Below are positions 956-22,318 of a stretch of 42,545 nt of DNA, one piece after another. Position 1 is the stretch's first letter, and each line of letters starts with the position of its first letter. The stretch is taken from UHGV virus genome UHGV-0212520, one strand, 5' to 3'. Under the pieces are notes generated by a model. The model made no database searches and was not told the origin of the DNA. It saw only the letters and a list, made by a program, of their open reading frames with translations. Source of the DNA: a virus. Both the position numbers and the translations under genes were made by a program.

Positions 956-2217
956 TCCAAATCCTCCTCTGTTACCTGATTCCACTCAGGACGTTTGTCG
1001 TCTGCCGTTGCCACACATGGCGCACCCGGCTTACGGGTAATAAAGTCTTTCAGTTCTTCTTCCGGCACAACTTTAACAGCTTCGGTCGGCGTCATGAGCA
1101 CTTGCTTCATTAGTGCTATACCATACTTGCCAGCCACTTTCTCCGCGTCTTTCCACGCACGATTACCTGGGCGACCTTCAACCAGTTTGTACCCCGGAAC
1201 TTTCTTACCGGAATGCAGTGCAGATGTCATCGCTTTCTCAACCTTGTCGATGTGCTGGCGCAACAATGGCAACTTCTCATACTCAGTTACGAGTTGCTCC
1301 GGCGTCAGTTCCAGCACAAAGTCGTCTTCAAGTTCTTCCACCAGCACCGCGTTAACCGTCTTTGTACGCGATGCGCACTGTTCAGAGAACCTACACCACT
1401 GACAGCCATCGACCGACGGCTTGAAGTCCGACGCTTTCAGGTTCTTCTTACCGCGGAAATAGGCATCAAGGGCTAACAGTGCTCGTTTCTGCGCAAACTT
1501 AGCGAACAGTTCCAGACCTTCAACTGAGATGTCCCACTCCGACGCACCACCCGCGTAGGGCTGGAAGATAACCAGACGAACTGTTGTTATGTTATAACGT
1601 CTCTTAAGTCTGCGATAAACGCCGAGAGCGTAAAGCATAAGCTGCTTGTTTTCTTTCGCTTCGACACGATGTCGTCCCGTTTTCAGGTCACCGATAATTA
1701 GCATGTGCTCGTCGGTGTTAGCCAGCTCCTGTACGGCAACGAGGTCAGCCGTTCCGAACGTCTGTAGTTCTTCTTGCCGTCCGCCAGGGCTATTGATGTA
1801 CCCCGGATGCAATACCTCAGTAAGATTGACGCGCATCTCGATCTTGGCGTAAGTGGCTACATCGATAATCGCTTTGCAGTAGTCAGTGTACTTGCGAACC
1901 TGCTCAATCATGTCTGCCGTAATCAGTACCGCGCCTTTCATCGGACTTATTAGCGCCTTAATCTGGCCTTTACCCTCATCCAGCACGTAAGCACCGACTT
2001 CGCGCTCTAACGGCAACGCGGTGCCTTTGATGTACTGGTTTAGGTGCATCTCAGCTATTGTGTGCATTGCCGTACCTAATACGGCGGCTTTACCGGACGT
2101 GTTAGGGATATCTTTTTCACAGGCCAGTGATGCGGCGCAACTTAGCCACTTTTTAGCGCCTGACGGCGACAGTAAGGCGTGCACATCATTATTGCCGCCG
2201 CGTTCTTTTAAAATCAT
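952..2217 (-). CDS. PD-(D/E)xK exonuclease, Cas4/RecB-nuclease-like with Fe-S cysteine cluster
   Basis: 421 aa; N-terminal Cys (LSCAASLAC) plus C-terminal C-x2-C-x5-C (CQWCRFSEQC) typical of Cas4/AddB-type nucleases; GDLKTG candidate active-site segment; RBS GGAGAG; ends in TEEDLE. Confidence 0.7.
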   Translation of the reverse strand: MILKERGGNNDVHALLSPSGAKKWLSCAASLACEKDIPNTSGKAAVLGTAMHTIAEMHLNQYIKGTALPLEREVGAYVLDEGKGQIKALISPMKGAVLITADMIEQVRKYTDYCKAIIDVATYAKIEMRVNLTEVLHPGYINSPGGRQEELQTFGTADLVAVQELANTDEHMLIIGDLKTGRHRVEAKENKQLMLYALGVYRRLKRRYNITTVRLVIFQPYAGGASEWDISVEGLELFAKFAQKRALLALDAYFRGKKNLKASDFKPSVDGCQWCRFSEQCASRTKTVNAVLVEELEDDFVLELTPEQLVTEYEKLPLLRQHIDKVEKAMTSALHSGKKVPGYKLVEGRPGNRAWKDAEKVAGKYGIALMKQVLMTPTEAVKVVPEEELKDFITRKPGAPCVATADDKRPEWNQVTEEDLE

Positions 2218-2561
2218 CGTAAACTCTCCAAATACAAGTTTAATGCTTGTAACTGTTCTTCTGTAGGAATGAAAGAATCATCACGATGCAAGTCACTTAA
2301 CTGTTGCAGCATTCCGGCGAACTGACGTCTTGCGTCAACAGATTCCATGTGATGTTTTTCACTTTTATATACTAGTGTTTTCGGGTAATCATCAAGCCTG
2401 CCAGACGATTTATTCACTCTGAGAACCCGAGCTTCGTGTGCAATGTGGATATACTTTCTCCCGTTTTGTAGCACAGTAGCTACGCCACTGTTCTTTCTGC
2501 GGTCGCCGACGGTGTAAACCTTGTCACCGCTGCGCAAATTAAGCCACCATTTATCCGTCAT
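2214..2561 (-). CDS. Hypothetical protein
   Basis: ORF in operon with ATGA overlaps on both sides; start moved to ATG 2561 (RBS GGGAGA) from the track's upstream alternative start. Confidence 0.5.
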   Translation of the reverse strand: MTDKWWLNLRSGDKVYTVGDRRKNSGVATVLQNGRKYIHIAHEARVLRVNKSSGRLDDYPKTLVYKSEKHHMESVDARRQFAGMLQQLSDLHRDDSFIPTEEQLQALNLYLESLR

Positions 2562-2830
2562 ACCCTGTTCTCCCACTGGTCAATTAAATGACGAGTCTTA
2601 TGTTCGCAATGCATAGCCCAGCCATACATCGACTCGAAGACATAAAAGTCAGGTTTGGCGAAAGTCGTGCGCTTAATCTGCGACACATGGCGGCCTATAT
2701 CTTTAGGCCGTGGTACTTTGCCTAAGTACGCCATCTCTTCCATCTGGTGCGAACCGGACGGCGCTCGCAACAGCCATAGAGCCTCTGTGTTATCCCGCCT
2801 GTCTACGGCGCGGTAGAGTTGGTAAATCAT
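2558..2830 (-). CDS. Hypothetical protein
   Basis: 90 aa ORF, ATG with RBS AGGAGA, translationally coupled to neighbours. Confidence 0.5.
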   Translation of the reverse strand: MIYQLYRAVDRRDNTEALWLLRAPSGSHQMEEMAYLGKVPRPKDIGRHVSQIKRTTFAKPDFYVFESMYGWAMHCEHKTRHLIDQWENRV

Positions 2831-3854: not shown

Positions 3855-3884
3855 ACTATAATAGCTAACTATTCATTGTGTCAA
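3855..3884 (-). promoter_or_regulatory. sigma70-like promoter, family A copy 2 (TTGACA-N18-TATAGT)
   Basis: Plus-strand block aactataatagctaactattcattgtgtcaa is near-identical to the 691-722 block; divergent from the HTH gene at 3949. Confidence 0.5.
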
Positions 3885-3948
3885 TGGGCTTTTCTAAAAT
3901 AATTAATATGGTACTATTCACATATCAACTGACTAAGGAGTAACTGAC

Positions 3949-4164
3949 ATGCAACCATCTGAACTAGGCATCCGTGTAGAACAACGCCGAAAAGAACTCG
4001 GCATCTCCCAGCGCCGTCTGGCTGTCCTGGCCGGTGTTTCCCAGGGCGCGATTAATCAGCTGGCTCTCGGTGTAACTCAGGACGTCCGCCCGGCAACGCT
4101 GTTTAAACTGGCGGAAGTGCTGCAAGTAGACGCCAAGTGGCTGGCGTTTGGTGAAGGGGCTTAA
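3949..4164 (+). CDS. XRE/Cro-like helix-turn-helix transcriptional regulator
   Basis: 71 aa; HTH signature LGISQRRLAVLAGVSQGAINQLALG; RBS AAGGAG 8 nt upstream; lone plus-strand gene embedded in minus-strand early region, convergent with primase-helicase. Confidence 0.7.
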   Translation: MQPSELGIRVEQRRKELGISQRRLAVLAGVSQGAINQLALGVTQDVRPATLFKLAEVLQVDAKWLAFGEGA

Positions 4165-4181: not shown

Positions 4182-6449
4182 CTATTCCAAATCCTCCTCT
4201 GTCACCACCAGCATTTCATTCGGTTCGTATATTGTCTTCGGTATTTTGTTGTCCGTTATCCGGGTGTTCAGCCTGTAACGGCCCGGTATTATCTGATTGT
4301 TTTCGTCTGTTCCAGGTACAAGATACCCGGCCTCAACCATTTTCTTAATCTTCCCGCGTTCTATGGCTTCTTTGGAGTTAAACGCCTTCGCGTTGGGGTC
4401 AGACTGTGCCAGCTTATTCGCTGCGGCCACCGTGATACCTTCGTTGCCGTTGTAGGTTCCTTCCGCCAGTTCAAACGCTGCCAGTATCGTGGCTTCTGAA
4501 CTGTTGACGGCGTTCTCTACGGTTTTACGTACATTTTCTTTACCTTCCTTTGTCAGCCCTTCTTCGCGCTCTTTCTCCTCGTCAGTCTTGAACGGCTCGA
4601 AGCCCCACGGCATCAGCACAAGCGCCTTGTGCGGCTCAGGCAGGTCGAGGTTTACTATTGTGCCGTATTCCTCTGTGTTACCCAGGAACTCAACTGCACG
4701 GTACTCTTTCGGTGGCGGCGCTTCACGGAACTGTACCGACTCCAGCACCATGCCAACTGTCTTCTGTTGCGGCCCGTGCTTAAATTTCGAGTGGTATACG
4801 TTTATCTGTCTGTCGGTAGCGCGTTCGATTGTCAGTTCCACGTCGACGCCCGCGTACAGCGCCCCACTACCGCGGGCTTTCTTTCCACCTTTAGGTGTGT
4901 GGTGGACAACGCCTACCGCAGCTTTAGTTGCATCACGCACTTCTTTCAGGATGGCGATAACTTTACCCATGCCGATTGCCGTTGATGAGCTGTTCTCGTC
5001 GAACTTATCAATCGTCAGAGCCAGGGTCTGGTTGAGGGTGTCGAACGCAACCATCCCAATCGGCTCGTCGCCAGCAGTTTCACGCATTATCTTAATCAGG
5101 CTTTTCAGTTTTCCGACTTCACCCATATCGATGACGTGTACATAATCTTTACCCTCAACGCCGTATTTAGCCGCGAGTGCATCGATACGTGTACGTGTGG
5201 CTGCGCCACCCTCGCCGTCGATATAGAAATGGTGGCAACGCTGGGTGTCAGCCCCCGCAAACCGGTATCCGGTGGCGCTGAGGTACATCATCCCCAGCGT
5301 ATAGAACGATTTGTACGTGCCAGATTCCCCGACGATATCCCAGATACAATCCGACGGCATGTACCCTTCTACGACGAAATCAGCCTTTACCGGGTCCGGC
5401 AGCTCGTCCTCCTCTGAGTCATCCTCGTCTTCCAGGTCGTCCAGGCTGCATGAAACAGATTCACGCGCGCCCCAGCCAATAGCCTCCGCGACTTCACTGA
5501 ACGGCAGACCAGTCGCATCGCACGCGTACTTCCACACCTCTTTCGGTGCCATGCCTTCGGTCGCCGTAATGTCGGTGTCGTGAATCATGGTTACGTTCGG
5601 CGCTTCGTAGCCTTCGCGCGGGAAGCACAGCAGGAAGTCGTCCGGGCGCGGTGTCGGGTCGCTGTAGTTCTCTGCATGTTCCGGTGTAGCTGGCATCTTC
5701 AGACCGCGGGGTGTCATGACGCCGCCGTACTCAAACGCCAGTGCCTCGAACGCGTCTGTAAACGCGGTGCGCAGTTCTTCCGGTATCTGGTAATCCGATG
5801 CGCTGCTCACCTCGTAATCCGGGGCGCCTTCCAGTAATTCGTCCGGGTCAATCAGGTCGTTGCGGCGCGACCAGATAACAGTAGAGCCTACCGGCGGCAG
5901 GTACATCGGTTGCGAAAGGGTGAAACCGCTGCGGTCGGCACCCATGCCTTTGAAGAAGTGCTCAAGCAAGCCATGACGAACACGGATGACGTCACCACCT
6001 TCGACTGGGCGGGCCAGCGGCATGACGACACGGAACCGCGGCGACTCATCGTTATGTGATGCCGTGGTGTAGAGGCACATAGCCCGTCGGCTGCGCTTAA
6101 CCAGGCACACCGCTTCCTGATACTCTTCCGGCGTTGCACTGTCGAAGTCAAGATACGCTAGTGACGATTTGCTTACAGACGCGTCACAGCGGTAAAAGAA
6201 GCCTTTACGCGCCCGCTTAAGGTCCCCGGTTTCCGGGTCTTTTACGGTGCTGTGCGTAGAGTCGCACGCAGCGGTGATATACCCCGGCGCGGTCTTAGGG
6301 TTAATCCCGCCACGGACAGCATCAAGCGGCTGGATTAACTCTTTCAGGTCGTCCAGTGTTGCTGTGTGTGTGGTTCTGACGTTTATATCCTTTTTCTCTG
6401 CCCGCGCGTTGCGACGAGACCACGAGTAGGATAAAATTACATCGGACAT
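4182..6449 (-). CDS. Putative replicative primase-helicase (C-terminal RecA-fold/RepA-like ATPase)
   Basis: 755 aa; C-terminal region GESGTYKSF ... VVHHTPKGGKKARGSGALYAGVDVELTIER resembles RepA/DnaB-like ATPase helicases; N-terminal domain unassigned; RBS GAAGGA; ends in TEEDLE. Confidence 0.6.
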   Translation of the reverse strand: MSDVILSYSWSRRNARAEKKDINVRTTHTATLDDLKELIQPLDAVRGGINPKTAPGYITAACDSTHSTVKDPETGDLKRARKGFFYRCDASVSKSSLAYLDFDSATPEEYQEAVCLVKRSRRAMCLYTTASHNDESPRFRVVMPLARPVEGGDVIRVRHGLLEHFFKGMGADRSGFTLSQPMYLPPVGSTVIWSRRNDLIDPDELLEGAPDYEVSSASDYQIPEELRTAFTDAFEALAFEYGGVMTPRGLKMPATPEHAENYSDPTPRPDDFLLCFPREGYEAPNVTMIHDTDITATEGMAPKEVWKYACDATGLPFSEVAEAIGWGARESVSCSLDDLEDEDDSEEDELPDPVKADFVVEGYMPSDCIWDIVGESGTYKSFYTLGMMYLSATGYRFAGADTQRCHHFYIDGEGGAATRTRIDALAAKYGVEGKDYVHVIDMGEVGKLKSLIKIMRETAGDEPIGMVAFDTLNQTLALTIDKFDENSSSTAIGMGKVIAILKEVRDATKAAVGVVHHTPKGGKKARGSGALYAGVDVELTIERATDRQINVYHSKFKHGPQQKTVGMVLESVQFREAPPPKEYRAVEFLGNTEEYGTIVNLDLPEPHKALVLMPWGFEPFKTDEEKEREEGLTKEGKENVRKTVENAVNSSEATILAAFELAEGTYNGNEGITVAAANKLAQSDPNAKAFNSKEAIERGKIKKMVEAGYLVPGTDENNQIIPGRYRLNTRITDNKIPKTIYEPNEMLVVTEEDLE

Positions 6450-6474
6450 GTTGTATTTCCTTCAGCAAGTAATT

Positions 6475-6506: not shown

Positions 6507-6740
6507 TTATTCCAGGTCTTCTAAAGTAGCGGTCATTCCGCGAACTTCTGCAACGGCACTATATTTCCCACCAACATTTTTCACGACACCGGACTTAACC
6601 AGCACCTTCAACGACCCTTCAATAATGGCGGAACTATAGTACTTAAAATAACTACGGCGCAAGTCGATAACGCTGCACGACCCTTTTTTACGTGTTAACG
6701 AAACTACTGCCGTGAATACCCGTGACTGGAACTCGGTCAT
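6507..6740 (-). CDS. Hypothetical protein ending in TATLEDLE
   Basis: 77 aa ORF; ATG overlaps the stop of the upstream AlpA-like gene (ATGA); C-terminal LEDLE tail resembles the EEDLE tails of exonuclease and primase-helicase. Confidence 0.5.
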   Translation of the reverse strand: MTEFQSRVFTAVVSLTRKKGSCSVIDLRRSYFKYYSSAIIEGSLKVLVKSGVVKNVGGKYSAVAEVRGMTATLEDLE

Positions 6741-6907
6741 TTTACATTCTCCTTAATCCACGCTTCCACTTTCTCCGGGTCAAACGTACCTGGTTGCCGG
6801 CGGCCCATAATGCGAATACAACAATCCGGGAACTTCCCACTCTTTAACCAGTTATTCAGCGTGCGACGAGTAACCCCGATACGCTCAGCTACCTCATTCT
6901 GTGTCAT
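6737..6907 (-). CDS. AlpA/Xis-like small HTH DNA-binding protein
   Basis: 56 aa; MTQNEVAERIGVTRRTLNNWLKSGKFP matches the AlpA-type HTH pattern; RBS AAGGAG; not in ORF track (<60 aa). Confidence 0.5.
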   Translation of the reverse strand: MTQNEVAERIGVTRRTLNNWLKSGKFPDCCIRIMGRRQPGTFDPEKVEAWIKENVK

Positions 6908-7107: not shown

Positions 7108-7394
7108 ACATAATCGCACCTATTGACATTATGAAAATCTTCGTTTAAGGTGCTTCTATATCTTAGTTACTTTGATTCCTGTTCACCTTGTAATACCCGC
7201 TTGAAACGCAGCTGCGCCAAAGCGCAAGCGAAGTGTTAAGCGGCAGATTACTGAACATATGAATTATAGTAACTTTCCTTCCTTAGTATCTCCGGTTGCC
7301 CTGGGCAAGCTCTATTCTCATCGGCAGCATATCTCTTAAGTATCTGATTTTCTTAAAGTGCCGTAGATTCGCAACCGTAAAAATGTAACGATTA

Positions 7395-7425
7395 TTGGGC
7401 AGGCCTTAAGGCCTGCCCTTTAGTT
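7395..7425 (+). terminator. Strong hairpin (gggcaggcc-ttaa-ggcctgccc) with downstream T-tract inside the large intergenic region
   Basis: 9-bp perfect stem at 7397-7418 followed by tttagtt; no annotated upstream plus-strand gene. Confidence 0.4.
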
Positions 7426-7490
7426 ACCAAGTAATAAGAATAAAGGCACAACCTTCCCTGAAGAATCACAACGGCAACGTAACTATTCTC

Positions 7491-7519
7491 TTGCACACCC
7501 CAACATAATAGGATACTAT
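7491..7519 (+). promoter_or_regulatory. sigma70-like promoter, family B copy 1 (TTGCAC-N17-TACTAT)
   Basis: TTGCAC 7491-7496, spacer accccaacataatagga, TACTAT 7514-7519; spacer and flank conserved with 8821-8849 and the minus-strand copies at 19594-19622 and 28174-28202. Confidence 0.5.
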
Positions 7520-13222: not shown

Positions 13223-13400
13223 AGCGCCTGAACCAGTAGTTATCGATGGCGTCCTGTGGAAGCCATACTCGGTTTACCACATCGACGCCGACGGGAAGAA
13301 GTTTAGCTTCTACATTTTTGCAATTAGCCGTGAGCACGCCGCTTGTGTGGTTGACGATATTCGAGAAACGGCGTGGCTTGGTGATGAGATAGCGGGGTGA
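13215..13400 (+). CDS. Hypothetical protein
   Basis: 61 aa ORF. Confidence 0.45.
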   Translation: MTKAPEPVVIDGVLWKPYSVYHIDADGKKFSFYIFAISREHAACVVDDIRETAWLGDEIAG

Positions 13401-13404
13401 GAGT

Positions 13405-13488
13405 ATGAGTCTCGAGGTGGTTATCGGTCTGGTGGGTCTTAGTTACTTCATTGGGCTGTTGGTTGGGTTTCTGTGGGGTAAATACTAA
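13405..13488 (+). CDS. Possible 27-aa single-TM micropeptide
   Basis: ATG 13405; MSLEVVIGLVGLSYFIGLLVGFLWGKY; low confidence because of size. Confidence 0.25.
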   Translation: MSLEVVIGLVGLSYFIGLLVGFLWGKY

Positions 13489-13658
13489 TGTTCAGTGACA
13501 TTAACGCGGCAATCGAAGAAGCAATCTGGCGTCGCTACAACGGCGAGCAACAACGGCATTTCTGCCTGGTGCAACGCGGTAACATGATTGCCGTAGTGCA
13601 GGACCGCGATAACAAATATCCGAATGCGATGTGGACAACGAGGAATTTTTTAGGATGA
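13488..13658 (+). CDS. Small hypothetical protein (56 aa)
   Basis: ATG 13488 (TAATG overlap); frame verified codon by codon to TGA 13656-13658. Confidence 0.35.
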   Translation: MFSDINAAIEEAIWRRYNGEQQRHFCLVQRGNMIAVVQDRDNKYPNAMWTTRNFLG

Positions 13659-13891
13659 TTACCAGCATTCCGAACCTGATTAAAGAATTCGGCACGATGG
13701 CCGAGACATGCCGGCAAACCGGCATCAACGAAATGACGATTGCGAAGTACAGCAAAGACGTTGATTGCGAGCGCCACGTAATTTATAACAATCGTCTGAT
13801 GACACATGTTAAGACAAGCCCGGTGTTATTCACGCGCCGAGGTATCACTAAAACTGAGCAACGCATTGCTAAAGGGGAGAGTGGGGAATGA
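13655..13891 (+). CDS. Hypothetical protein, possible HTH-like segment
   Basis: 78 aa from ATG 13655; AETCRQTGINEMTIAKYSK is HTH-like. Confidence 0.4.
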   Translation: MITSIPNLIKEFGTMAETCRQTGINEMTIAKYSKDVDCERHVIYNNRLMTHVKTSPVLFTRRGITKTEQRIAKGESGE

Positions 13892-14070
13892 TTGAGATTT
13901 TGAGGGCTACGAATGTTGCTGGTGACCTGGTGTTTTGGCTGGCCTTTCTCGGTGTGCTGATAAAACAACCGACTCTGTTTAACAGTCTCCCTCGTTACCT
14001 GTGGTGGCCTATGTTTTTAGGCATGGGTGTATCAGGCGTGGCAGGCATCCTTTTGTGGTTTTTCAAATGA
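13888..14070 (+). CDS. Small membrane protein (two hydrophobic segments)
   Basis: 60 aa; LVFWLAFLGVLI and MFLGMGVSGVAGILLWFF. Confidence 0.45.
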   Translation: MIEILRATNVAGDLVFWLAFLGVLIKQPTLFNSLPRYLWWPMFLGMGVSGVAGILLWFFK

Positions 14071-14169
14071 GACTACTAATCATCCCTAACGCCTGGGCCA
14101 TTCCCGTAGCCAACGACCATTACGGCGGCGACGGTAAAAGAGCGCAACGACACGGCCTATACAACTGAT

Positions 14170-14197
14170 ACAAGCCCTCTACGGAGGGCTTTTCTGT
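14170..14197 (+). terminator. Intrinsic terminator before the packaging module
   Basis: agccctc-tacg-gagggct followed by tttctgt. Confidence 0.55.
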
Positions 14198-14230
14198 ACA
14201 TCCCGCCCAATCCCCTTATATAATCTATTT

Positions 14231-14249
14231 AGACGCGTAGGGCGCGTCT
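14231..14249. promoter_or_regulatory. Palindrome AGACGCG-N5-CGCGTCT upstream of the small terminase gene
   Basis: agacgcgtagggcgcgtct at 14231-14249, with another AGACGC copy at about 14266; just downstream of a TATAAT-like hexamer at about 14219-14224. Confidence 0.4.
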
Positions 14250-14289
14250 GGTGCGCTCTGATGGTCAGACGCATATGCAAGGGGATTCT

Positions 14290-14835
14290 ATGAAGCTGAA
14301 ACTTAAGCAGCCATCGCCAGAGGTGGTGCAAGCTGCACATGAAGAAGCTGTTAGCGCAAACCGTCGCCGTAAACAACCGCGCGGTAAACAGAGCCTTTAT
14401 CAATCATCCCGTAATTCCGCTGCGCTGTGGGACCCGGACTATTGCGACGCGTTAATCGAGTTCTTCGACCGCACGTCGTGGGAACTTGTTCCTACGTCCA
14501 AAGGTGACGAACGCCCGTTGATTCAGGATAAACCGCCGTCGCTGGCCCGCTTCGCATTACACATCGGCGTCACTATTCCGATTATTAAGCTGTGGTTGCG
14601 TGAGATTCCCGCATTTGCAGAAGCCTGGGAGACCGCACAGGCGCTGGAAGAGGCGTACTTCACGGAGACAGGCGCGGCGGGCATCTCCGCTACGTTTGCT
14701 GCCGCGAAGTTGGGCCTCAGCAAAGAGAAACCGGTTGAATCAACCGAAGAAACGGCGCCGACTGAGATTATTTTCAGTGTCGCAGAGCCTGTAGGTAAAA
14801 TCGTAACAACGAATATGGGCGAGGTAGAGGAATGA
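14290..14835 (+). CDS. Putative terminase small subunit
   Basis: 181 aa from ATG 14290 (RBS AAGGGGA); position immediately upstream of and overlapping the large terminase; no diagnostic motif verified. Confidence 0.45.
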   Translation: MKLKLKQPSPEVVQAAHEEAVSANRRRKQPRGKQSLYQSSRNSAALWDPDYCDALIEFFDRTSWELVPTSKGDERPLIQDKPPSLARFALHIGVTIPIIKLWLREIPAFAEAWETAQALEEAYFTETGAAGISATFAAAKLGLSKEKPVESTEETAPTEIIFSVAEPVGKIVTTNMGEVEE

Positions 14836-16082
14836 GTATTCAGCTATCCGCACCACAGGCACTGTTCCTGAATTGCGATAACAAATACAAAGCCTATGTG
14901 GGCGGCTTCGGCAGCGGCAAGACGTTTGTTGGCTGTCTCGACCTGCTTACGTTTATGCTCAAGCACCCCGGTACACGCCTCGGCTACTTCGGCCCAACGT
15001 ACCCTGCTATACGTGACATCTTCTACCCGACATTCGAGGAAGCGGCTAATCTCCTCGGTCTCGATGTGCTGGTCAAATCCGGCGACAAAGAAGTCGTGGT
15101 TACTCGCGGTAAGACGGTGTTAGGAACTGTTATCTGCCGCTCGATGGATAATCCAGGCTCGATAGTCGGCTTCAAAATCGCGGCTGCGGTCGTGGATGAG
15201 CTGGACGTATTAAGCCGTGAGAAAGCTGAGCTGGCGTGGAACAAAATCGTAGCCCGTATGCGTCTGGTTATACCAGGTGTAATTAACCACATCTCCGTCA
15301 CCACGACGCCGGAAGGGTTCAAGTTCGTCTACGCCAAGTTCAAAGAGAATCCGACACCGAGTTACTCAATGGTGCAGGCCTCCACGCACGAGAATGCGCG
15401 ATTCCTGCCGCCGGATTACATTAGCTCACTGACCGAGACTTACCCCGCGCAACTGATTAACGCGTATCTGAACGGGGAGTTCGTTAACCTGACCTCCGGC
15501 AGCGTGTATTACGCCTATGAGCGCCGTAAGCACCGCAGTAAAGAGACAATTCAACCTGGCGACACGCTGTACATCGGGCAGGACTTCAACGTTACGAAGA
15601 ACGCAAGCGCCGTGTATGTGCAACGTAAAGATGGCTGGCACGCTGTAGCAGAACTGAAAGGCCTGTTCGATACACCGGACACCGTGCGTGTGATTACTGA
15701 GAAGTGGAAGTCACAAGGTCACCGCATCGTCGTTTACCCCGACGCCAGCGGCAAGAACCGCAAAACCAACTCGGCGTCAATCTCTGATATTGCGTTACTC
15801 CAGCAGGCCGGGTTCGATGTTCGCGCTAAATCCGTCAACCCCCCGGTTAAAGACCGTGTTTTAGCGGTGAATACCGCGCTGGAAAAAGGTAAGCTGTGGG
15901 TTAACGACCACTTATGCCCCGAGATAGCCAAGACGCTGGAGCAGCAGGCTTACGACGATAACGGGGAGCCATCCAAAGACGGCATCATTGATCATATGGC
16001 GGATGCTCTCGGCTATCCTGTAGTTTATGAGATGCCGGTGGTTAAACCAGTAATCAACATCCCGGTGACTTTCGCACTTTAA
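14832..16082 (+). CDS. terL: Terminase large subunit
   Basis: 416 aa; Walker A-like YVGGFGSGKTFVG near N-terminus; followed by portal. Confidence 0.85.
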   Translation: MSIQLSAPQALFLNCDNKYKAYVGGFGSGKTFVGCLDLLTFMLKHPGTRLGYFGPTYPAIRDIFYPTFEEAANLLGLDVLVKSGDKEVVVTRGKTVLGTVICRSMDNPGSIVGFKIAAAVVDELDVLSREKAELAWNKIVARMRLVIPGVINHISVTTTPEGFKFVYAKFKENPTPSYSMVQASTHENARFLPPDYISSLTETYPAQLINAYLNGEFVNLTSGSVYYAYERRKHRSKETIQPGDTLYIGQDFNVTKNASAVYVQRKDGWHAVAELKGLFDTPDTVRVITEKWKSQGHRIVVYPDASGKNRKTNSASISDIALLQQAGFDVRAKSVNPPVKDRVLAVNTALEKGKLWVNDHLCPEIAKTLEQQAYDDNGEPSKDGIIDHMADALGYPVVYEMPVVKPVINIPVTFAL

Positions 16083-16094
16083 GAGGATTATTCA

Positions 16095-17564
16095 ATGTTA
16101 ACTATGAACGGTCAGAATCAGGGTGTTAAGACAAAACACCGGGAATGGCTGCATCACTTCGATAAATGGCAGAAGGTGCGACACGCGCTGGAAGGCGACC
16201 TTATCCGTTACCTGCGCAACGTCGGTAAGAACGAACCAGACCAAACCCACGCAGCACAGCGGCAGGAAGAATACGAGAACGGCGCTATCTGCTACAACTT
16301 CGCTAAACGTACCCTGGCGGGGATGGTGGGATCGGTGATGCGCAAAGACCCTGAGCAGATTATTCCGCCTGAACTGGAGTACCTGTTACGCAACGCGGAC
16401 GGTTCCGGTGTCGGGCTGTGGCAGCACGCCCAGGATACGCTGATGGAGATTGACTCGGTGGGTCGCGGTGGGTTGCTGGTTGACGCCCCGGAGACAGCCG
16501 CGGCAACGGCAGCAGAACAGAACGCCGGTTTATTAAACCCGGTCATCGCGTTCTACACCGCGGAGAACATCATCAACTGGCGACTGACCCGCATAGGTTC
16601 CGTTAACCGAGTGACAATGGTTGTGTTGCGCGAAGTATGGGAGTACTCGGAACCGGGCGCAGAGTTTGAAACCAAGTTCGGCGAGCAATACCGCGTCCTT
16701 GACCTGATTGACGGCCGTTATCGCCAGCGCATTTACCGCTTCGATGCCGAAGGTGGTGCTCAGGATGAAGTAATCGAAATATTCCCGGAACTCGGTGAAC
16801 AGTTGCGCGGCAAAATCCCGTTCACGTTCATCGGGGCAAGCAACAACGACGCAACCATCGACGACGCACCTTTGCTGCCGTTGGCTGAGCTTAATATCGG
16901 ACATTTCCGTAACAGCGCGGACAATGAGGAGTCCAGTTTCGTTGTGGGCCAGCCCACTCTATTCATCGCCCCAGGTGGGAACATGAGCATGGAACAGTGG
17001 AAAGAGGCCAACCCTCACGGTGTCCGCATGGGTTCACGCTCGGGCCACAACATTGGCGAAGGTGGCAATGCGTTTCTGGTCCAGGCCGGAGAGAACAACC
17101 TCGCCAAACAGAACATGCTGGATAAAGAGAATCAGGCCATCCAGATTGGGGCGCAGCTTATCACCCCGACGCAGCAAATCACTGCGGAATCAGCCCGTCT
17201 GCAACGCGGTGCTGATACGTCAGTTATGGCGACAATCGCGCGTAACGTAAGCATGGCGTATACCGATGCGTTGCGCTGGGTGGCTGCGATGCTAGGGTTA
17301 CGTGAAGGTACAGAGGTTGAGTTCAAACTGAATATGGAGTTCTTCCTGCAACCTATGACCGCTCAGGACCGCGCCCAGTGGATGGCCGATATTAACGCGG
17401 GACTGTTACCTGCTACTGCTTACTATGCTGCGTTGCGCAAGGCGGGTGTAACTGACTGGACCGATGAGGACATACAGAGCGCTATCGAAGACGCACCGTT
17501 GCCGTTAGGTGCTGTAGCGCAGGTATCTGGAGCGATTCCTCAGTCGGCGCAACAACAGGAGTAA
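16095..17564 (+). CDS. Portal protein
   Basis: 489 aa directly downstream of terL and upstream of head morphogenesis gene. Confidence 0.75.
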   Translation: MLTMNGQNQGVKTKHREWLHHFDKWQKVRHALEGDLIRYLRNVGKNEPDQTHAAQRQEEYENGAICYNFAKRTLAGMVGSVMRKDPEQIIPPELEYLLRNADGSGVGLWQHAQDTLMEIDSVGRGGLLVDAPETAAATAAEQNAGLLNPVIAFYTAENIINWRLTRIGSVNRVTMVVLREVWEYSEPGAEFETKFGEQYRVLDLIDGRYRQRIYRFDAEGGAQDEVIEIFPELGEQLRGKIPFTFIGASNNDATIDDAPLLPLAELNIGHFRNSADNEESSFVVGQPTLFIAPGGNMSMEQWKEANPHGVRMGSRSGHNIGEGGNAFLVQAGENNLAKQNMLDKENQAIQIGAQLITPTQQITAESARLQRGADTSVMATIARNVSMAYTDALRWVAAMLGLREGTEVEFKLNMEFFLQPMTAQDRAQWMADINAGLLPATAYYAALRKAGVTDWTDEDIQSAIEDAPLPLGAVAQVSGAIPQSAQQQE

Positions 17565-17884: not shown

Positions 17885-18928
17885 ATGAGCTTACTTACAT
17901 CCCTAATCAGCCACCAGATTTGGCTGCAACGCACCGCATCGGGCGAAGTGAAAGACCTTGCGCCTTTCATTAAGGAGATGCGGGACGAAATCAAACGGCA
18001 GGTGCTGCTGTTCGGTGACGATGGGCGTAGCACCGCGCGACTGAATAAACTGTTACGCGACCTGGAAGAAGCACTGAGCGGACTTACGGGCGACTGGCAA
18101 ACAAAGCTGACGGAAGACCTTAAGGAACTGGCGGAGTATGAAGCAGAGTGGAACGTAAAAACGCTGACGGCTAACGTTAACGCGGAATTTGTTACACCCG
18201 CCGCCGAGCAGGTGTGGTCCGCCGCCGAGTTTCAGCCTCTGTCGCTAAGCGACAAGCCTGTCGATTTCACCAAGCTGATGTCGGACTGGGGTGAAACGGA
18301 GGTTGCGCGCCTGGTAACTGGTGTTAAGATGGGTTTCGTACAAGGGCAAACCACACGGCAGATTGTTAAGAATGTTGTAGGCGCTGGCGGACTGGCCGAC
18401 ATCTCAGAACGTAACGCAGCTACCGTAATCCGCACCGCGCTGTCGCACGTATCCAACGAAGCCCGTAACGAGACGTACCGCCAGAACGACGACATCATCG
18501 AGAAATACGAATGGGTATCAACGCTGGACAGCCGTACCAGTACGATTTGCAGAGCCAGAGACGGAATGACGTGGGAAATCGGTAAAGGGCCGATGCCCCC
18601 CGCCCATCCGAACTGTCGATCGTGCACGGCACCGGTAATCAGTTCAGAGTTCGATTTCCTGGATAAAGGCGCAAAACGCGCGGCTAAGGGCGCGGACGGC
18701 GGGACTCAGGTAAGCGCGGACACCACTTACTACGAGTTCCTTAAACAACAACCGGCGTGGTTTATCGACGAGGCCATCGGCCCTGTTCGCGGTAAGATTT
18801 TCCGCGACAGCGGTATATCGCCAGAGGAGTTTCGCGTAATATCTGTAGATGGTTTCGGGAATCCGCTAACGCTTAAGCAGATGGCGGAACTCGATAAACG
18901 TGTTGCTGATTATCTGAAAGGGGAATAA
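17885..18928 (+). CDS. Head morphogenesis protein (Mu gpF / SPP1 gp7-like)
   Basis: 347 aa; C-terminal WVSTLDSRTSTICRARDGMTWEIGKGPMPPAHPNCRSC matches the conserved minor head protein motif; follows portal. Confidence 0.7.
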   Translation: MSLLTSLISHQIWLQRTASGEVKDLAPFIKEMRDEIKRQVLLFGDDGRSTARLNKLLRDLEEALSGLTGDWQTKLTEDLKELAEYEAEWNVKTLTANVNAEFVTPAAEQVWSAAEFQPLSLSDKPVDFTKLMSDWGETEVARLVTGVKMGFVQGQTTRQIVKNVVGAGGLADISERNAATVIRTALSHVSNEARNETYRQNDDIIEKYEWVSTLDSRTSTICRARDGMTWEIGKGPMPPAHPNCRSCTAPVISSEFDFLDKGAKRAAKGADGGTQVSADTTYYEFLKQQPAWFIDEAIGPVRGKIFRDSGISPEEFRVISVDGFGNPLTLKQMAELDKRVADYLKGE

Positions 18929-19389
18929 TGATGGGCTTTTTCAAAGTAACTGATGCACCGTCGCGCCGCGTAGTCCAGTACGCCCGCGTGTCTGGCTCTG
19001 GCGAGAACGTTGTGTTTATTGAGGATGAAAGTGTACTCGGCACACCTGTGGACGATATGCCTTTTGCAGATAAAACCGGTATTGCACTACCCGCAGCGGG
19101 TATGCTTTACGAGATTCCGTATCTGGCGGACGCAGGCGATGTGTATTTCTCTGTGCAACCGAAAGACGCTGAACTGGCAGACGGCAGCGCAACTATCACT
19201 GTCGAAGTTAAGGCTGGCAAAGCGCCGTATGCTCTTACCTGGTACAAAGACGGTAAGGAAGTGGTCAACGCCCCTGAAGAGGCTTTGTCTCTGACGGTTA
19301 ACGCAGTCGGTGAATACTTCGTTAAAGTTACCGATGCCGGTGGTGTAGAGGCCGTCAGTAAAGTGGCGAAGGTCACTAAGCCTGAATGA
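18928..19389 (+). CDS. Ig-like domain protein (possible capsid or tail decoration)
   Basis: 153 aa; YALTWYKDGKEVV...GEYFVKVTDAGG resembles bacterial Ig-like domains; similar segment in 22336-22677. Confidence 0.5.
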   Translation: MMGFFKVTDAPSRRVVQYARVSGSGENVVFIEDESVLGTPVDDMPFADKTGIALPAAGMLYEIPYLADAGDVYFSVQPKDAELADGSATITVEVKAGKAPYALTWYKDGKEVVNAPEEALSLTVNAVGEYFVKVTDAGGVEAVSKVAKVTKPE

Positions 19390-19390
19390 T

Positions 19391-19418
19391 AAAAGGCCCC
19401 AAATGGGGCCTTAGTTTT
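19391..19418. terminator. Bidirectional intrinsic terminator (AAGGCCCC-N4-GGGGCCTT family)
   Basis: aaaaggccccaaatggggccttagtttt. Confidence 0.65.
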
Positions 19419-19542
19419 ATGTTAAGCTGAGTCTTTCTGCCCACTCAAGCATCACCTTTTTAATGCGTGAGTCGGGGGCGTCTCTCCACGCTTTACGGAT
19501 AACCGCAGCTCGACATTTATTTTTAAGAGGTGCGTAGTTCAT
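19417..19542 (-). CDS. Small hypothetical protein (41 aa) driven by promoter B3
   Basis: ATG 19542 on minus strand, translation MNYAPLKNKCRAAVIRKAWRDAPDSRIKKVMLEWAERLSLT; ends at the terminator; weak RBS. Confidence 0.3.
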   Translation of the reverse strand: MNYAPLKNKCRAAVIRKAWRDAPDSRIKKVMLEWAERLSLT

Positions 19543-19593
19543 TTTAAATATTCCCGATTTGATGGATTAAACATGTTGTGTGTGTTGAAATGA

Positions 19594-19622: not shown

Positions 19623-19674
19623 ACTATTTATTTACCTATTCCAGTTATTCCACCGAATTGTAAATGTTAGAATA

Positions 19675-19690
19675 AACTATTCGAATAGTT
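19675..19690. promoter_or_regulatory. Perfect 16-bp palindrome AACTATTCGAATAGTT overlapping the -35 of the 19689 promoter
   Basis: aactattcgaatagtt reads identically on both strands; contains the ACTATTC motif found at the family B -10 regions. Confidence 0.5.
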
Positions 19691-19717
19691 GACTTTTCAC
19701 TAAAAATGTGCTAAGCT
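19689..19717 (+). promoter_or_regulatory. sigma70-like promoter with extended -10 (TTGACT-N17-TGcTAAGCT)
   Basis: TTGACT 19689-19694, 17-nt spacer ending in TGc, TAAGCT 19712-19717. Confidence 0.4.
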
Positions 19718-19724
19718 CCACCTG

Positions 19725-19895
19725 AGCTTGTGAAGTATGAACAAGCGACCGCGGCGCGGGCAGGTAACGGAGCGGGACGTAAGTCCTGAGTGTAGTTACG
19801 CTGACGCGTTCGGAAGGGCCATACTCTATTGCTTGTGTAAAAAGTAACAGGTTTACTGAGATTACGCCGTTTCTATGTTTAAATGATAAGGCCTA
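19725..19895 (+). ncRNA. Candidate small RNA or structured leader between promoter 19689 and terminator 19896
   Basis: About 170-200 nt transcribed interval with no ORF that has an RBS (only a 36-codon ATG ORF at 19737-19847 without SD); GC-rich internal inverted repeats (gcttgt/acaagc, ccgcg/cgcgg). Confidence 0.25.
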
Positions 19896-19922
19896 GCGCC
19901 CCGCTTTAAGGCGGGGCTTTAC
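19896..19922 (+). terminator. Intrinsic terminator-like hairpin upstream of the spanin genes
   Basis: gccccgc-tttaag-gcggggc followed by tttactt. Confidence 0.5.
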
Positions 19923-19942
19923 TTATCGAGAAAGGGGGAAAC

Positions 19943-20332
19943 ATGAATCTTAAAGCAACTGTCGTAGCGGGAGCGTGTTTCATCATCCTGGCCCACGCAC
20001 ACGGCGTCTACCAGTACCGCATCGGCTGGAACGAAGGCCGGGCGAATCTCGTTTCGCAGCAACAGCAGAAAGCACAGGCTGAGTTCGCGAAGAAAACACA
20101 ACGGCAGCAGCAGGATGAATCAAAGGCCGCAGCCGCTGACAACGAAGGTAAGACGAAATCAGAGGTGATTACCCGTGAAGTCGTTAAGTACATTAAAACG
20201 CCTGGTCGCAGCGTGTGCACTTTTGACCCTGAGCGCGTGCAGCTCAAGTCCCGCGCCGTCGTCAACGCCAATTCCATCCCCGGATACGATGATGATGCAG
20301 CCGCCGTGCAAACTGGCAGCGCCAAGCAGTGA
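19943..20332 (+). CDS. Rz: i-spanin (Rz-like)
   Basis: 129 aa; N-terminal TM segment, Q/E-rich coiled-coil middle, RBS AGGGGGA; lipoprotein gene in +1 frame within its 3' half. Confidence 0.65.
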   Translation: MNLKATVVAGACFIILAHAHGVYQYRIGWNEGRANLVSQQQQKAQAEFAKKTQRQQQDESKAAAADNEGKTKSEVITREVVKYIKTPGRSVCTFDPERVQLKSRAVVNANSIPGYDDDAAAVQTGSAKQ

Positions 20333-20438: not shown

Positions 20439-20520
20439 TTGCCTTGCATGTTGGAATAATTTATTCTTGACATGTAAATCCGGGTGGCCCGGGTTCCAAC
20501 GTCCAGGGGACATACTGACT

Positions 20521-22287: not shown

Positions 22288-22318
22288 TCGAGAGGGACTT
22301 CGGTCCCTCTTTTCATTT
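22288..22318 (+). terminator. Intrinsic terminator after capsid gene
   Basis: gagggac-ttcg-gtccctc followed by ttttcattt. Confidence 0.7.

Follow-up and report, generated by a model that had tools for sequence, protein, structure and literature searches.

A conserved structured leader RNA ahead of the spanin and capsid genes of a Kagunavirus-type phage, with a possible put-like action in cis

In phage lambda, the late leader consists of the PR' promoter, the 194-nt 6S RNA and the tR' terminator, lies ahead of the lysis and head genes, and is subject to Q antitermination; we know of no conserved, covarying structure in the lambda 6S RNA. The 5' UTR of ompA acts as a two-hairpin stabiliser, and the R sites of T7 are RNase III sites. 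To our knowledge, HK022 and its close relatives are the only phages with known protein-free antitermination RNAs. An RNA of the put kind binds the zinc-binding domain of the RNA polymerase beta-prime subunit and acts in cis, with no help from proteins, to suppress terminators. The HK022 put RNAs are ~70 nt long, fold into two stem-loops whose bulges matter for function and lie directly downstream of promoters; one copy stands at the head of each of two operons, and no protein of the phage is required (PMC9378689). conAn is reported to be a bipartite processive antitermination system of Gram-positive conjugative elements that reads through several terminators in an operon (PMC8191782).

Here we describe a promoter and leader of virus genome UHGV-0212520 (the window, i.e. 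the whole 42,545-nt stretch analysed; Table 1). Like the lambda late leader, the locus combines a promoter, an untranslated leader of ~200 nt and a terminator-like hairpin upstream of lysis (here Rz/Rz1) and head genes, and its promoter has a DNA site that could bind a regulator. Unlike lambda, no Q- or N-type antiterminator is annotated in the relative Bas76, no Pfam antiterminator domain was found in the 10 early ORFs scanned, and the terminator is not conserved across the family. Our preferred explanation, to which we assign a rough probability of 0.35, is that the locus specifies a conserved leader RNA of the spanin/capsid operon of a Kagunavirus-type phage that acts put-like in cis. An untranslated leader of ~220 nt would be transcribed rightward from the sigma-70-type promoter at 19689-19717 into Rz/Rz1, and the transcript probably continues into the scaffold and capsid genes (predicted extent). 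Its first ~110 nt form a conserved module, in which a short hairpin at the 5' end is followed by a long interrupted one with invariant loop nucleotides and by the single-stranded segment GGAAGGGCC...CUAUUG; a second long hairpin adjoins the Rz ribosome-binding site.

Table 1. Positions of the features of the promoter and leader within the window
Feature	Position	Strand	Description
Direct repeat TATTCC-AGT-TATTCC	19637..19651	+	upstream of promoter
Palindrome GAATAAACTATTC (GAATA-N3-TATTC)	19670..19682		candidate operator; 6 nt upstream of -35
16-bp perfect palindrome AACTATTCGAATAGTT	19675..19690		overlaps -35; centre ~41.5 nt upstream of predicted start
Promoter core	19689..19717	+	-35 TTGACT 19689-19694; 17-nt spacer; extended -10 TGc-TAAGCT 19709-19717
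Predicted transcription start	19724..19725	+	7-8 nt past -10; from promoter geometry only
P1, 5'-terminal hairpin	19726..19746	+	GCUUGU 19726-19731 pairs with ACAAGC 19741-19746
36-codon ORF	19737..19847	+	hypothetical protein in many GenBank records
Long interrupted hairpin P2-P4	19749..19813	+	internal-loop and bulge nucleotides conserved
P2	19749-19758 with 19805-19813	+	
P3	19761-19768 with 19795-19803	+	
P4	19772-19778 with 19783-19791	+	
Conserved single-stranded stretch	19812..19834	+	GGAAGGGCC, variable hexamer, then CTATTG(CTT); 3' end of duplicated module
Variable linker	19835..19868	+	runs into conserved motif AGATTACGCCGT (19859-19870)
Segment A GUUUCU	19869..19874	+	can pair with 19937-19942, between Rz ribosome-binding site and AUG
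Extended hairpin, ~17 bp	19885..19927	+	GAUAAG 19885-19890 with CUUAUC 19922-19927; UAG with UUA; top is stem-loop 19898-19917
Terminator-like stem-loop and U-rich tail UUUACUUAU	19898..19926	+	terminator scan
Rz ribosome-binding site GAAAGGGGG, spacer, ATG (19943)	19930..19945	+	annotated Rz-like spanin in relatives

The palindrome, the extended -10 promoter, the GC-rich inverted repeats, the hairpin and the 36-codon ORF that the earlier note had listed were all found where it had put them. A consensus promoter scan does not flag the promoter core, because the -10 of the core matches the consensus at only 3 of 6 positions; as read from the sequence, the TG lies at 19709-19710 and the -10 TAAGCT at 19712-19717. 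Nevertheless, every relative retains the -35, the spacing, the TGn and the TA(A/C)GCT -10, and this extends to the diverged Jerseyvirus type and to the second copies of the element described below.

The 16-bp palindrome is specific to the Kagunavirus type: it is present in Kagunavirus-type relatives, carries 2 mismatches in relative L029 and is degenerate in the Jerseyvirus types. The window holds one perfect copy of it, and at up to 3 mismatches it gives 3 matches, compared with 0.13 expected. The part common to both types is the overlapping GAATA-N3-TATTC palindrome, which has two perfect copies in the window (the second at 20454-20466) and reads GAATACTTTATTC in the Jerseyvirus version, at an unchanged distance from the -35. 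The direct repeat farther upstream, probably a protein-binding site, is kept in the Kagunavirus and Jerseyvirus types and absent from the second copies. Since the second copies lack the palindrome and the Jerseyvirus types keep only part of it, we place it outside the duplicated RNA module, as a regulatory feature of the promoter of the 19689-19717 copy, and the upstream palindromes probably bind a phage regulator that times the firing of this promoter copy. The window encodes two helix-turn-helix proteins, at 3949-4164 (plus strand) and 6737-6907 (minus strand). We also considered a sigma-dependent pause element, as the -10 is repeated downstream (TAAGCT...TGAGCT), but in the Kagunavirus type position 2 of the repeat is not the A that is critical there, so that a pause element is unsupported; in the Jerseyvirus types, the -10-like hexamer repeat reads TACGCT...TACGCT.

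RNA folding and covariation across related phages, which the earlier note had proposed as a check, revealed many compensatory changes that support a conserved secondary structure, and the GC-rich inverted repeats proved to be the arms of a covarying RNA hairpin. In the 5' domain, 97.7% of cells are paired over all types and 18 of 30 pairs are compensated, compared with 26-44% of cells paired and 1-5 compensated pairs in shifted controls (0-5 across the controls of both domains). Compensatory changes occur in 4 of the 6 pairs of P1 and in 14 of the 24 pairs of P2-P4 (~97% of cells paired vs 27-44% in shifted controls), and the 3' domain has them in 8 of 23 pairs. These alignments were guided by covariance models, together with one made by hand. 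A covariance model built from the Kagunavirus type alone matches the Jerseyvirus types with E values of 1e-6 to 3.5e-5, and independent single-sequence folds of five sequence types gave the same architecture, P1 being recovered in their minimum-energy folds. The folding energy is -38.3 kcal/mol for the plus strand vs -25.4 for the minus strand, and we assign the RNA to the plus strand because of conserved G-U pairs. Together, covariation and folding indicate that the interval encodes a structured, conserved plus-strand RNA.

The most invariant positions lie in internal loops, in bulges and in the single-stranded GGAAGGGCC...CUAUUG stretch, which is kept (as GGAAGGGCC...CTATTG) in all types and in the second copies. 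Loop and unpaired segments of the 5' domain include GGAGC, GAGUGUAG and GGAAGGGCC. The linker that follows differs in length and sequence among types and has no pairing common to them, and the motif AGATTACGCCGT at its end is kept in the Kagunavirus and Jerseyvirus types. The helix formed by segment A is weakly supported, with one compensatory pair (U-A to A-U), two pairs broken in the Jerseyvirus types and a pairing probability of 0.95 in the Kagunavirus type vs 0.04 in the Jerseyvirus type. In the Jerseyvirus types, P1 starts only 3-4 nt past the -10, so that a transcript begun at the usual distance may contain it incompletely.

Several further candidates were rejected. Several natural variants break a P1-loop pseudoknot (AGUAUG with CAUACU at 19820-19825), and a long-range helix that would join the 5' end to the segment behind the hairpin, proposed by RNAalifold on a plain MAFFT alignment, competes with the better-supported P1. 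The mini-ORFs of the linker (AUG-UUU-AAA-UGA and UUG-started ORFs) are not conserved, for example in relative L041.

The 36-codon ORF, which the earlier note had already found unconvincing, is intact in most Kagunavirus-type genomes, where it is annotated as a hypothetical protein, and this is what favours a small protein, as annotated. Against this, the ORF has no ribosome-binding site, and in 7 examined loci it is cut to 9 or 17 codons or frameshifted by single-base indels; L029 lacks the start codon, and neither the Jerseyvirus types, without exception, nor the diverged second copies have the ORF at all. Wherever substitutions were observed in it, they alter an amino acid, while the RNA pairing stays. 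Hence, neither the preserved frame, start and length nor the excess of silent changes that mark a small gene was found, and the frameshifts, the loss of the start codon and the absence in relatives exclude coding. We conclude from this pattern of variation that the ORF is not a gene; a small protein is extremely improbable, and the hypothetical-protein annotation in GenBank, which lies over the leader RNA, is probably wrong.

The extended hairpin before Rz shows compensation in 7 of 17 pairs, with 98-100% of cells paired, and a model built from the Kagunavirus type only (R2) matches the Jerseyvirus types at E ~1e-6. Its top has 8 pairs, 7 of them G-C, and the tail TTTACTTAT, and is flagged as terminator-like by the scan; a G+C-rich stem-loop directly followed by a U-rich tract, as in intrinsic terminators, is thus present in this phage, where the stem-loop is probably a leaky transcription stop. 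In the Jerseyvirus types, no U-tract follows the hairpin (tail UUAGCGUAU) and the scan flags no terminator; a rough terminator score is +14 in this phage vs -6 to -17 in those types. The terminator-like hairpin of the earlier note is therefore upheld for this phage by the scan and the UUUACUUAU tail, and does not extend to the family, in which the U-rich tail is not conserved. What the family does keep is pairing: the nucleotides after the stem pair and covary with an upstream segment. Covariation with upstream partners is seen for nucleotides 5-10 nt past the stem and for others in the spacer that separates the ribosome-binding site from the AUG, so that selection appears to act on read-through transcripts.

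The suggestion that the unit is an attenuator was not borne out in the form of refolding, as no conserved alternative pairing was found: no alternative pair is common to the thermodynamic ensembles of the Kagunavirus and Jerseyvirus types. One antiterminator candidate, pairing the 5' arm of P4 with the 5' arm of the hairpin, is not maintained in L029.

We found the RNA in ~450 Guernseyvirinae genomes, as two sequence types (Kagunavirus and Jerseyvirus), in 181 and 269 phage records, out of ~462 records that have a capsid protein at least 80% identical to that of this phage. Its carriers include phages of E. coli and of Salmonella. Identity of the RNA within a type is 97% or 95.5%, while the neighbouring Hoc-like and Rz genes are 88-90% identical and the scaffold and capsid genes mostly 78-94%. 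These identities indicate that the RNA is more conserved within each type than most neighbouring genes and is under selection.

A second copy of the promoter core and 5' domain, from the -35 to CUAUUG, occurs in ~40 Kagunaviruses, about a quarter of them, which brings the GenBank total to roughly 490 copies. Golestan and fFiEco03 have two copies, whereas BASEL phages Bas70-76 have one. The second copies head a rightward operon of small genes, which in relatives holds the holin and endolysin; their similarity stops at 19831, the sequence downstream is unrelated, and ~340 nt of such sequence separate the domain from the first gene. In the fFiEco03-type second copy, there is no canonical terminator before the next gene.

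The genome of SETP13 is of Jerseyvirus type in both helix-turn-helix regulators, Rz, scaffold and capsid, and contains a Kagunavirus-type block of the Hoc gene, promoter and RNA. Because SETP13 combines a Kagunavirus-type RNA with a Jerseyvirus-type genome, the RNA appears to be independent of phage proteins. The specific link to spanins drawn in the earlier note did not hold, as mosaic phages pair this RNA type with a different Rz type; the RNA is not tied specifically to spanins.

Outside the Guernseyvirinae, the element was not recovered. A blastn search returned matches in Guernseyvirinae only, 5,426 E. coli genomes did not contain the RNA, and the covariance model matched neither Stenotrophomonas phage AXL3 nor Shewanella phage 3/49. 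A loose motif pattern found almost only chance matches in viral contigs; a tighter pattern found the known phages and chance matches that the covariance model rejected, and in bacterial genomes only chance matches from unrelated phyla. Rfam at gathering thresholds gave no match over the whole window, and a permissive search (E up to 10) with the Kagunavirus and Jerseyvirus versions gave only chance-level matches (K_chan_RES, CC0196 and, on the reverse strand, CRISPR-DR52 with E 0.18). ARAGORN found no tRNA or tmRNA in the window. A mimic of a CRISPR repeat was rejected: the Kagunavirus-type stem CCCCGC/GCGGGG resembles the stem of the type I-E repeat, but the Jerseyvirus stem differs. The literature searched on transcription in Guernseyvirinae, Jerseyvirus and Kagunavirus contained no description of this RNA, and the RNA-seq paper on phage vB_Eco_K1B4 gives gene-level profiles only. 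By these searches, the RNA matches no family in the databases consulted, Rfam among them.

The earlier note had offered a small RNA or a regulatory leader, and an RNA-level unit is indeed supported; between the two, the data favour a cis-acting leader over a free-standing sRNA of ~200 nt, because the Jerseyvirus types have no U-tract, because covarying pairs reach beyond a terminated 3' end, and because the promoter core and 5' domain recur before a different operon, in one subtype without a canonical terminator. The RNA probably controls the making or the keeping of a long transcript. For the making, we suggest that the module acts in cis at the head of long operons and would use host machinery instead of a phage protein. 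It would fold on exit from RNA polymerase and modify or accompany the elongating enzyme, like the HK022 put RNAs, and the polymerase would then read through the leaky stop at 19898-19926 and through hairpin stops farther on, among them the post-capsid one at 22290-22311, which is directly followed by the next ribosome-binding site with no promoter between. Virulent Guernseyvirinae would in this way make host RNA polymerase terminator-resistant on long operons, and about a quarter of Kagunaviruses would have the promoter-plus-RNA cassette copied to another operon as well. Taken alone, such an action on RNA polymerase is the most likely mechanism by our analysis, though a doubtful one. Against it, the start site and the 3' ends are predictions, as is the extent of read-through, and neither the Jerseyvirus copies nor the second copies of the fFiEco03 type are directly followed by a good terminator, so that antitermination would there have to act on stops farther away. 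Phages without an antitermination system commonly have partial terminators behind their capsid genes.

The facts that favour antitermination, namely the 5' position, the co-duplication with the promoter and the independence of phage proteins, would all fit nearly as well with a 5'-end stabiliser or processing element, which would keep the transcript by shielding the long late mRNA from RNase E and pyrophosphohydrolase or by offering RNase III sites. P1 begins ~2 nt past the predicted start, the module is always 5'-terminal in long operons and its duplication included the promoter that would fix this end, the element occurs in a phage whose background is foreign to it as well as in phages of both E. 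coli and Salmonella, and its two irregular helices span 17-24 bp. The extended hairpin beside the ribosome-binding site could additionally tune spanin translation, in keeping with the helix of 19869-19874 with 19937-19942, which touches the spacer before the AUG; this helix is, however, weak in the Jerseyvirus types. A stabiliser also needs stems and not conserved loops, whereas here loops, bulges and GGAAGGGCC...CUAUUG are the most invariant parts. We therefore rank protection of the 5' end as unlikely on its own, though a close second to put-like action, and it may operate instead of that action or along with it.

The remaining functions are improbable. A free-standing, trans-acting sRNA of ~200 nt, ended by the hairpin at 19898-19926 or processed, would work on targets in the host or the phage, or by sequestering a protein, and the second copies would be paralogous sRNA genes. 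Multi-copy sRNA families are common, and the locus has its own promoter, a terminator-like hairpin in this phage, very high nucleotide conservation and extended hairpins that could mark processing sites. Such an sRNA is nevertheless improbable: beyond the points that favour a leader, conservation does not extend to its 3' end and concerns structure, not a single-stranded seed, and no perfect complement to the long conserved motifs was found elsewhere in the phage genome. A sensor or operator, in which the 5' domain binds a small molecule, an ion or a phage or host protein and sets downstream expression as a new riboswitch or translational operator, would fit the location in the 5' UTR and the invariant junction and loop nucleotides inside covarying helices, as in aptamers and protein-binding sites. 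The early ORF at 2214-2576 (minus strand) has a Phage_ProQ_C_like domain, and its product is a candidate RNA-binding protein; this ORF is apparently missing from Bas76 and SETP13, judged from ORF sizes in annotation tables. No conserved alternative pairing connects the domain to the hairpin or ribosome-binding site, the linker varies in length and sequence, the second-copy domain lies far from its first gene, the RNA type swaps freely among phage backgrounds and no Rfam riboswitch matches, all of which make a sensor quite improbable.

Guernseyvirinae (Kagunavirus, Jerseyvirus) are among the most often isolated phages of E. coli and Salmonella and are used in therapy and biocontrol; the literature searched contained no study of their gene-expression control. 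The leader RNA is among the most conserved non-coding stretches of their structural-gene region and has a well-supported fold. If the module does modify RNA polymerase, it would be a second phage example of a protein-free antitermination RNA, and this in lytic phages. Even as a mere mRNA stabiliser, it would be a compact, portable promoter and leader cassette that could serve phage or expression engineering; in nature, the cassette has already moved between operons.

Compared with the boxA/boxB leaders, that is lambda nutL-N and rrn, the locus shares a leader of ~220 nt with a recognition hairpin near the 5' end, a large hairpin by the ribosome-binding site of the first gene and copies heading two operons. 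It differs in having no N-like protein and no convincing boxA; CUCUAUUG loosely resembles CUCUUUAA, a resemblance lost in the Jerseyvirus types. Stabilisers of the ompA type and the T7 R sites are alike in the hairpin at the extreme 5' end, the long irregular helices, the place in leaders of highly expressed long mRNAs and the reliance on host RNases only, and unlike in that a pure stabiliser or RNase III site does not require its unpaired nucleotides to be the most conserved, as they are here. conAn is reported to be bipartite, whereas the present RNA has no evident partner protein and its type is exchanged among phage backgrounds.

The closest counterparts are putL and putR of HK022, from which the present RNA differs in several respects. 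There is no sequence similarity (blastn found Guernseyvirinae only, Rfam nothing), the domain is ~90-110 nt long vs ~70 nt in put, it has one short and one long hairpin instead of two similar stems, its carrier is a virulent siphovirus and not a lambdoid phage, and its action on the polymerase is putative. We tentatively regard it as possible, at well below even odds, that the module 19689-19831 represents a new class of protein-independent processive antiterminator RNA, a put analogue without sequence relationship. In agreement with this, both RNAs are promoter-proximal, non-coding and built of two stem-loops (here P1 and the long hairpin begin 2-3 nt past the predicted start), both can head two operons with no evident dedicated protein, and both have terminators downstream and are transcribed by the same host polymerase, the sigma-70 enzyme of E. 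coli.

We found that relatives of the interval fall into two sequence types, Kagunavirus (181 phage records, 178 of them at 95-99% identity) and Jerseyvirus (269 records at 90-100% identity), with a few intermediates (loci L029 and L016). As plain sequence, the two types are hard to align, but they have in common blocks such as ACCGCGG-GCGG, AGCGG, AG(U/C)GUA, UUCGGAAGGGCC, UAUUGCUU, AGAUU(A)CGCCGU and GUUUA; the stems between these blocks differ by paired changes. A covariance model of the 5' domain (P1, the long hairpin P2-P4 and the single-stranded motifs to CUAUUG), built from the Kagunavirus type only, detected the Jerseyvirus types with E values of 1e-6 to 3.5e-5. The model-derived alignments lean towards the structure model because they were fitted to it, and in them 98% of the 5'-domain cells were paired, with compensatory changes in 15 of 30 pairs (18 of 30, at 97.7% paired, with further variants), and 97.7% of the 3'-domain cells were paired, with 8 of 23 pairs compensated. 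With partners moved by 1-3 columns as a control, the 5' domain gave 27-42% paired cells and 0-3 compensated pairs. Independently of the model, single-sequence minimum-energy folds had the same architecture in all five sequence types folded (z-scores of -2.1 to -5.1). Folding and covariation across related phages, a check that the earlier note had proposed, returned a common fold. Given its conserved G-U pairs and because the - strand folds far less stably (-25.4 versus -38.3 kcal/mol for the + strand), the RNA was assigned to the + strand.

Within the Kagunavirus type, the RNA had 97.1% identity to the window, versus 88% for the Hoc-like gene, 90% for Rz, 87% for the scaffold gene and 78% for the 5' part of the capsid gene. 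Within the Jerseyvirus type it had 95.5%, versus 88-94% for these genes, and a short intergenic stretch between the Rz1 tail and the scaffold gene reached 96%. Hence, the RNA ranks with the best-conserved segments in this neighbourhood. No Rfam family was matched by the window, Kagunavirus or Jerseyvirus versions, and 5426 complete E. coli genomes held no match. Exact-motif scans and the covariance model, as far as they reach, found no homologue outside Guernseyvirinae in viral and genome collections, and we found no description in the literature on Guernseyvirinae, Jerseyvirus or Kagunavirus transcription. We conclude that the interval is a real, conserved, structured, non-coding RNA, previously undescribed as far as families and literature were searched.

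Features of the leader, its surroundings and its second copies (window positions unless a locus is named)
Feature	Position	Strand	Remark
Hoc-like head-decoration gene	18928-19389		upstream flank of the RNA interval
Bidirectional terminator	19393-19412		closes the Hoc-like gene
Direct repeat TATTCC-AGT-TATTCC	19637-19651		conserved array upstream of the main-copy promoter
TGTAAAT			same array
Palindrome GAATA-N3-TATTC	19670-19682		same array, 6 nt before the -35
P1 hairpin	19726-19746	+	starts about 2 nt past the predicted transcription start
P2	19749-19758 with 19805-19813	+	long interrupted hairpin
P3	19761-19768 with 19795-19803	+	long interrupted hairpin
P4	19772-19778 with 19783-19791	+	long interrupted hairpin
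GGAAGGGCC then CUAUUG	19812-19831	+	single-stranded, after the long hairpin
Motif AGAUUACGCCGU	19859-19870	+	ends the variable linker
Extended helix, roughly 17 bp	19885-19927	+	its top is the terminator of the earlier note
Rz/Rz1 spanin genes	from 19943		downstream flank, followed by scaffold and major capsid genes
Perfect palindrome GAATAATTTATTC (GAATA-N3-TATTC)	20454-20466		upstream of the scaffold gene; identical in both types
Hairpin AAUCCGGG-UGG-CCCGGGUU	about 20477-20497		before the scaffold gene; compensatory changes at its outer pairs in Jerseyvirus types (ACACCGGG-UGG-CCCGGUGU)
Hairpin stop GAGAGGGAC-UUCG-GUCCCUCUU then UUCAUUU	22290-22311		directly 3' of the capsid gene
Second copy, Golestan	L371:1640-2010
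Second copy, fFiEco03	L372:1640-2010
Second copy, Ec1-ASingh	L370
Further second copies	L373-L376

The loops and bulges of the long interrupted hairpin are invariant. The linker after CUAUUG varies in length and sequence, and no pairing common to the types was found in it. The flanks of the extended helix change from GAUAAG with CUUAUC to UAUACG with CGUAUA in Jerseyvirus types, and covariation weakly suggests a short helix of 19869-19874 with 19937-19942, in the spacer before the Rz AUG.

The 36-codon ORF in this interval, whose coding value the earlier note had doubted, exists at 19737-19847. Among 48 related loci fetched via the Rz protein, single-base indels leave 9 codons of it (five loci) or 17 codons (one locus) and rewrite the ORF in one further locus, the intermediate L029 lacks its start codon, and it is absent from all Jerseyvirus-type loci. 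Every substitution seen inside the ORF alters an amino acid. Hence, the doubt was justified, and the ORF is not a gene.

The extended -10 promoter read from the sequence by the earlier note is present (TTGACT at 19689-19694, a 17-nt spacer and TGc-TAAGCT at 19709-19717); a consensus scan missed it because its -10 matches only 3 of 6 positions. This layout is preserved in all relatives compared. The upstream array is common to both types, and the Jerseyvirus-type -35 is weaker (TAGACT), which suggests a promoter dependent on an activator. The 16-bp perfect palindrome was also located, at 19675-19690 as the sole copy in the window; it overlaps the array and occurs in the Kagunavirus type only. 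The array and the two GAATA-N3-TATTC sites are probably sites for a phage regulator, and two small helix-turn-helix proteins are encoded (3949-4164, + strand; 6737-6907, - strand). The upstream sites serve regulation of the main copy and lie outside the RNA module.

A repeat of the -10 hexamer follows within a few bases (TAAGCT-CCACC-TGAGCT, 19712-19728; TACGCT-AAC-TACGCT in the Jerseyvirus-type locus L039, about 1296-1311), and AAGCTC and GAGCTT form an inverted repeat around the predicted start site in the window. Two strong early promoters on the - strand (about 700-745 and 3865-3905) have TTGACA-N3/4-GAATAGTTAGCTAT-TATAGT in common, and their spacers contain the palindrome AATAG-N4-CTATT. 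In the late promoter these 5-mers stand the other way round (CTATT-CG-AATAG), and AACTATTC also closely precedes a promoter-like site (about 7481-7512). From these motifs, one regulator may serve all of these sites.

At 42.5 kb, the window is an essentially complete Kagunavirus-like siphophage genome (subfamily Guernseyvirinae). The stretch 19413-19590, which separates the Hoc terminator from the RNA promoter, is hypervariable (12-48% identity) and looks like an insertion hot spot; its cargo is a reverse ORF of 41 aa in the window and of 68 aa in Bas76, whereas SETP13 has endonuclease VII there. The region upstream of the scaffold gene (20439-20520) is 96-100% conserved within the Kagunavirus type, and the TTGACA beside its hairpin is not conserved. 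The stop behind the capsid gene abuts the ribosome-binding site of the next gene, and no promoter separates the two; hence, the downstream structural genes depend on read-through. An early 120-aa protein (2214-2576, - strand) matches Pfam Phage_ProQ_C_like (E 9e-7, above cut-off) and is possibly RNA-binding; judged by ORF sizes in annotation tables, it is apparently missing from Bas76 and SETP13. In Shewanella phage 3/49 (L366:2950-3290), a distant relative whose capsid protein is about 40% identical, a 325-nt gap between head-morphogenesis and scaffold genes has the same genomic position. It holds several strong sigma-70 promoters and, by eye, a terminator-like hairpin (ACCAGC-UUAAUU-GCUGGU and U6) that went unflagged in the + strand scan. 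Together these could make up a unit of promoter, short RNA and terminator, not homologous to the leader RNA described here.

A second, diverged copy (78-83% identical) that extends exactly from the -35 to CUAUUG, matching 19689-19831, is present in about 40-43 of the 181 Kagunavirus-type genomes, including Golestan, fFiEco03, fPoEco01, Ivi, 22664BS2, G and L AB-2017, KMB36 and AV104. Its site is the early control region, where a leftward helix-turn-helix gene flanks it on one side and a rightward small-gene operon, which in relatives includes holin and endolysin, on the other. Second copies score 56-93 bits with the covariance model and fold like the main copy, without its upstream palindromes and with unrelated downstream sequence; the fFiEco03 type has no canonical terminator before the first gene. 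The window, Bas76, SETP13 and SETP3 have a single copy. In SETP13 (L367, classified Jerseyvirus), the block 4801-6450 brings a Kagunavirus-type Hoc gene, promoter and RNA into a genome that is otherwise of the Jerseyvirus type. Hence, such mosaics show that RNA type is uncoupled from Rz, scaffold and capsid and from both helix-turn-helix regulators.

SETP13 has other short Kagunavirus-like blocks (13351-14400, about 15150-16500 with gaps, and 37801-38250), and the Golestan second-copy leader (L371:1820-1865) has a (CTCA)n microsatellite, about 7 units long, just before its hairpin. The window's counterpart of the second-copy spot (7118-7450, +) has a promoter-like TTGACA-17-TAAGGT, behind it a different, very stable structured leader (7152-7450, z -5.77), and the motifs CUCUAUUC and AGAUUCGC, which resemble motifs in the main leader. 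The 3' part (7355-7445) matches R2, a 3'-domain covariance model built from the Kagunavirus type only, at 23.9 bits, and this leader may be a diverged paralogue.

The earlier note had left the choice between an sRNA and a regulatory leader. Its terminator-like hairpin was flagged by the scan (19898-19917, tail TTTACTTAT), as a free-standing, trans-acting sRNA would have it. In Jerseyvirus types, UUAGCGUAU follows the stem and the scan calls no terminator there; a rough score, of which the relative values alone count, was +14 in the window versus -6 to -17 in Jerseyvirus types. Covarying 3'-domain pairs include nucleotides 5-10 nt past the stem, so an RNA terminated at the hairpin would not contain all of them. 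Together with the mosaics and second copies, these results point to a cis-acting operon leader, which the RNA most likely is; the leader half of the proposal stood, and a trans-acting sRNA is improbable. The attenuator option found no support, since Kagunavirus and Jerseyvirus ensembles contained no conserved terminator/antiterminator refolding, and we consider a ligand- or protein-sensing RNA equally improbable.

By analogy, the leader's mechanism may be put-like action on RNA polymerase, a tentative reading with a probability of roughly 0.3. A module tied to its promoter right at the head of long multi-gene operons, copyable to a different operon, independent of phage-protein type and bearing conserved unpaired nucleotides would act in cis to modify polymerase, resembling HK022 putL/putR most. 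Stops lie downstream of it, namely a probably leaky hairpin (19898-19926, window phage) and the one after the capsid gene. An antiterminator of the Q or N type was neither annotated in a relative nor detected in ten early ORFs. Nearly the same facts are accounted for by a 5'-end stabiliser or processing element of the kind seen in the ompA leader and T7 RNase III sites. Such an element leaves the loops as the most conserved positions unexplained, and we rate it only slightly less probable than put-like action. The leader mechanism is open to direct experimental test.

HK022 putL and putR are about 70 nt with two stem-loops whose bulges matter for function; they stand directly behind promoters, at the heads of two operons, and require no phage protein (PMC9378689). 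The module has no sequence similarity to put and, by sequence, does not belong to it. In layout, the leader RNA is like the lambda PR'-6S-tR' late leader and the lambda nutL-N leader, whereas in probable mode of action HK022 put is the closest known system.
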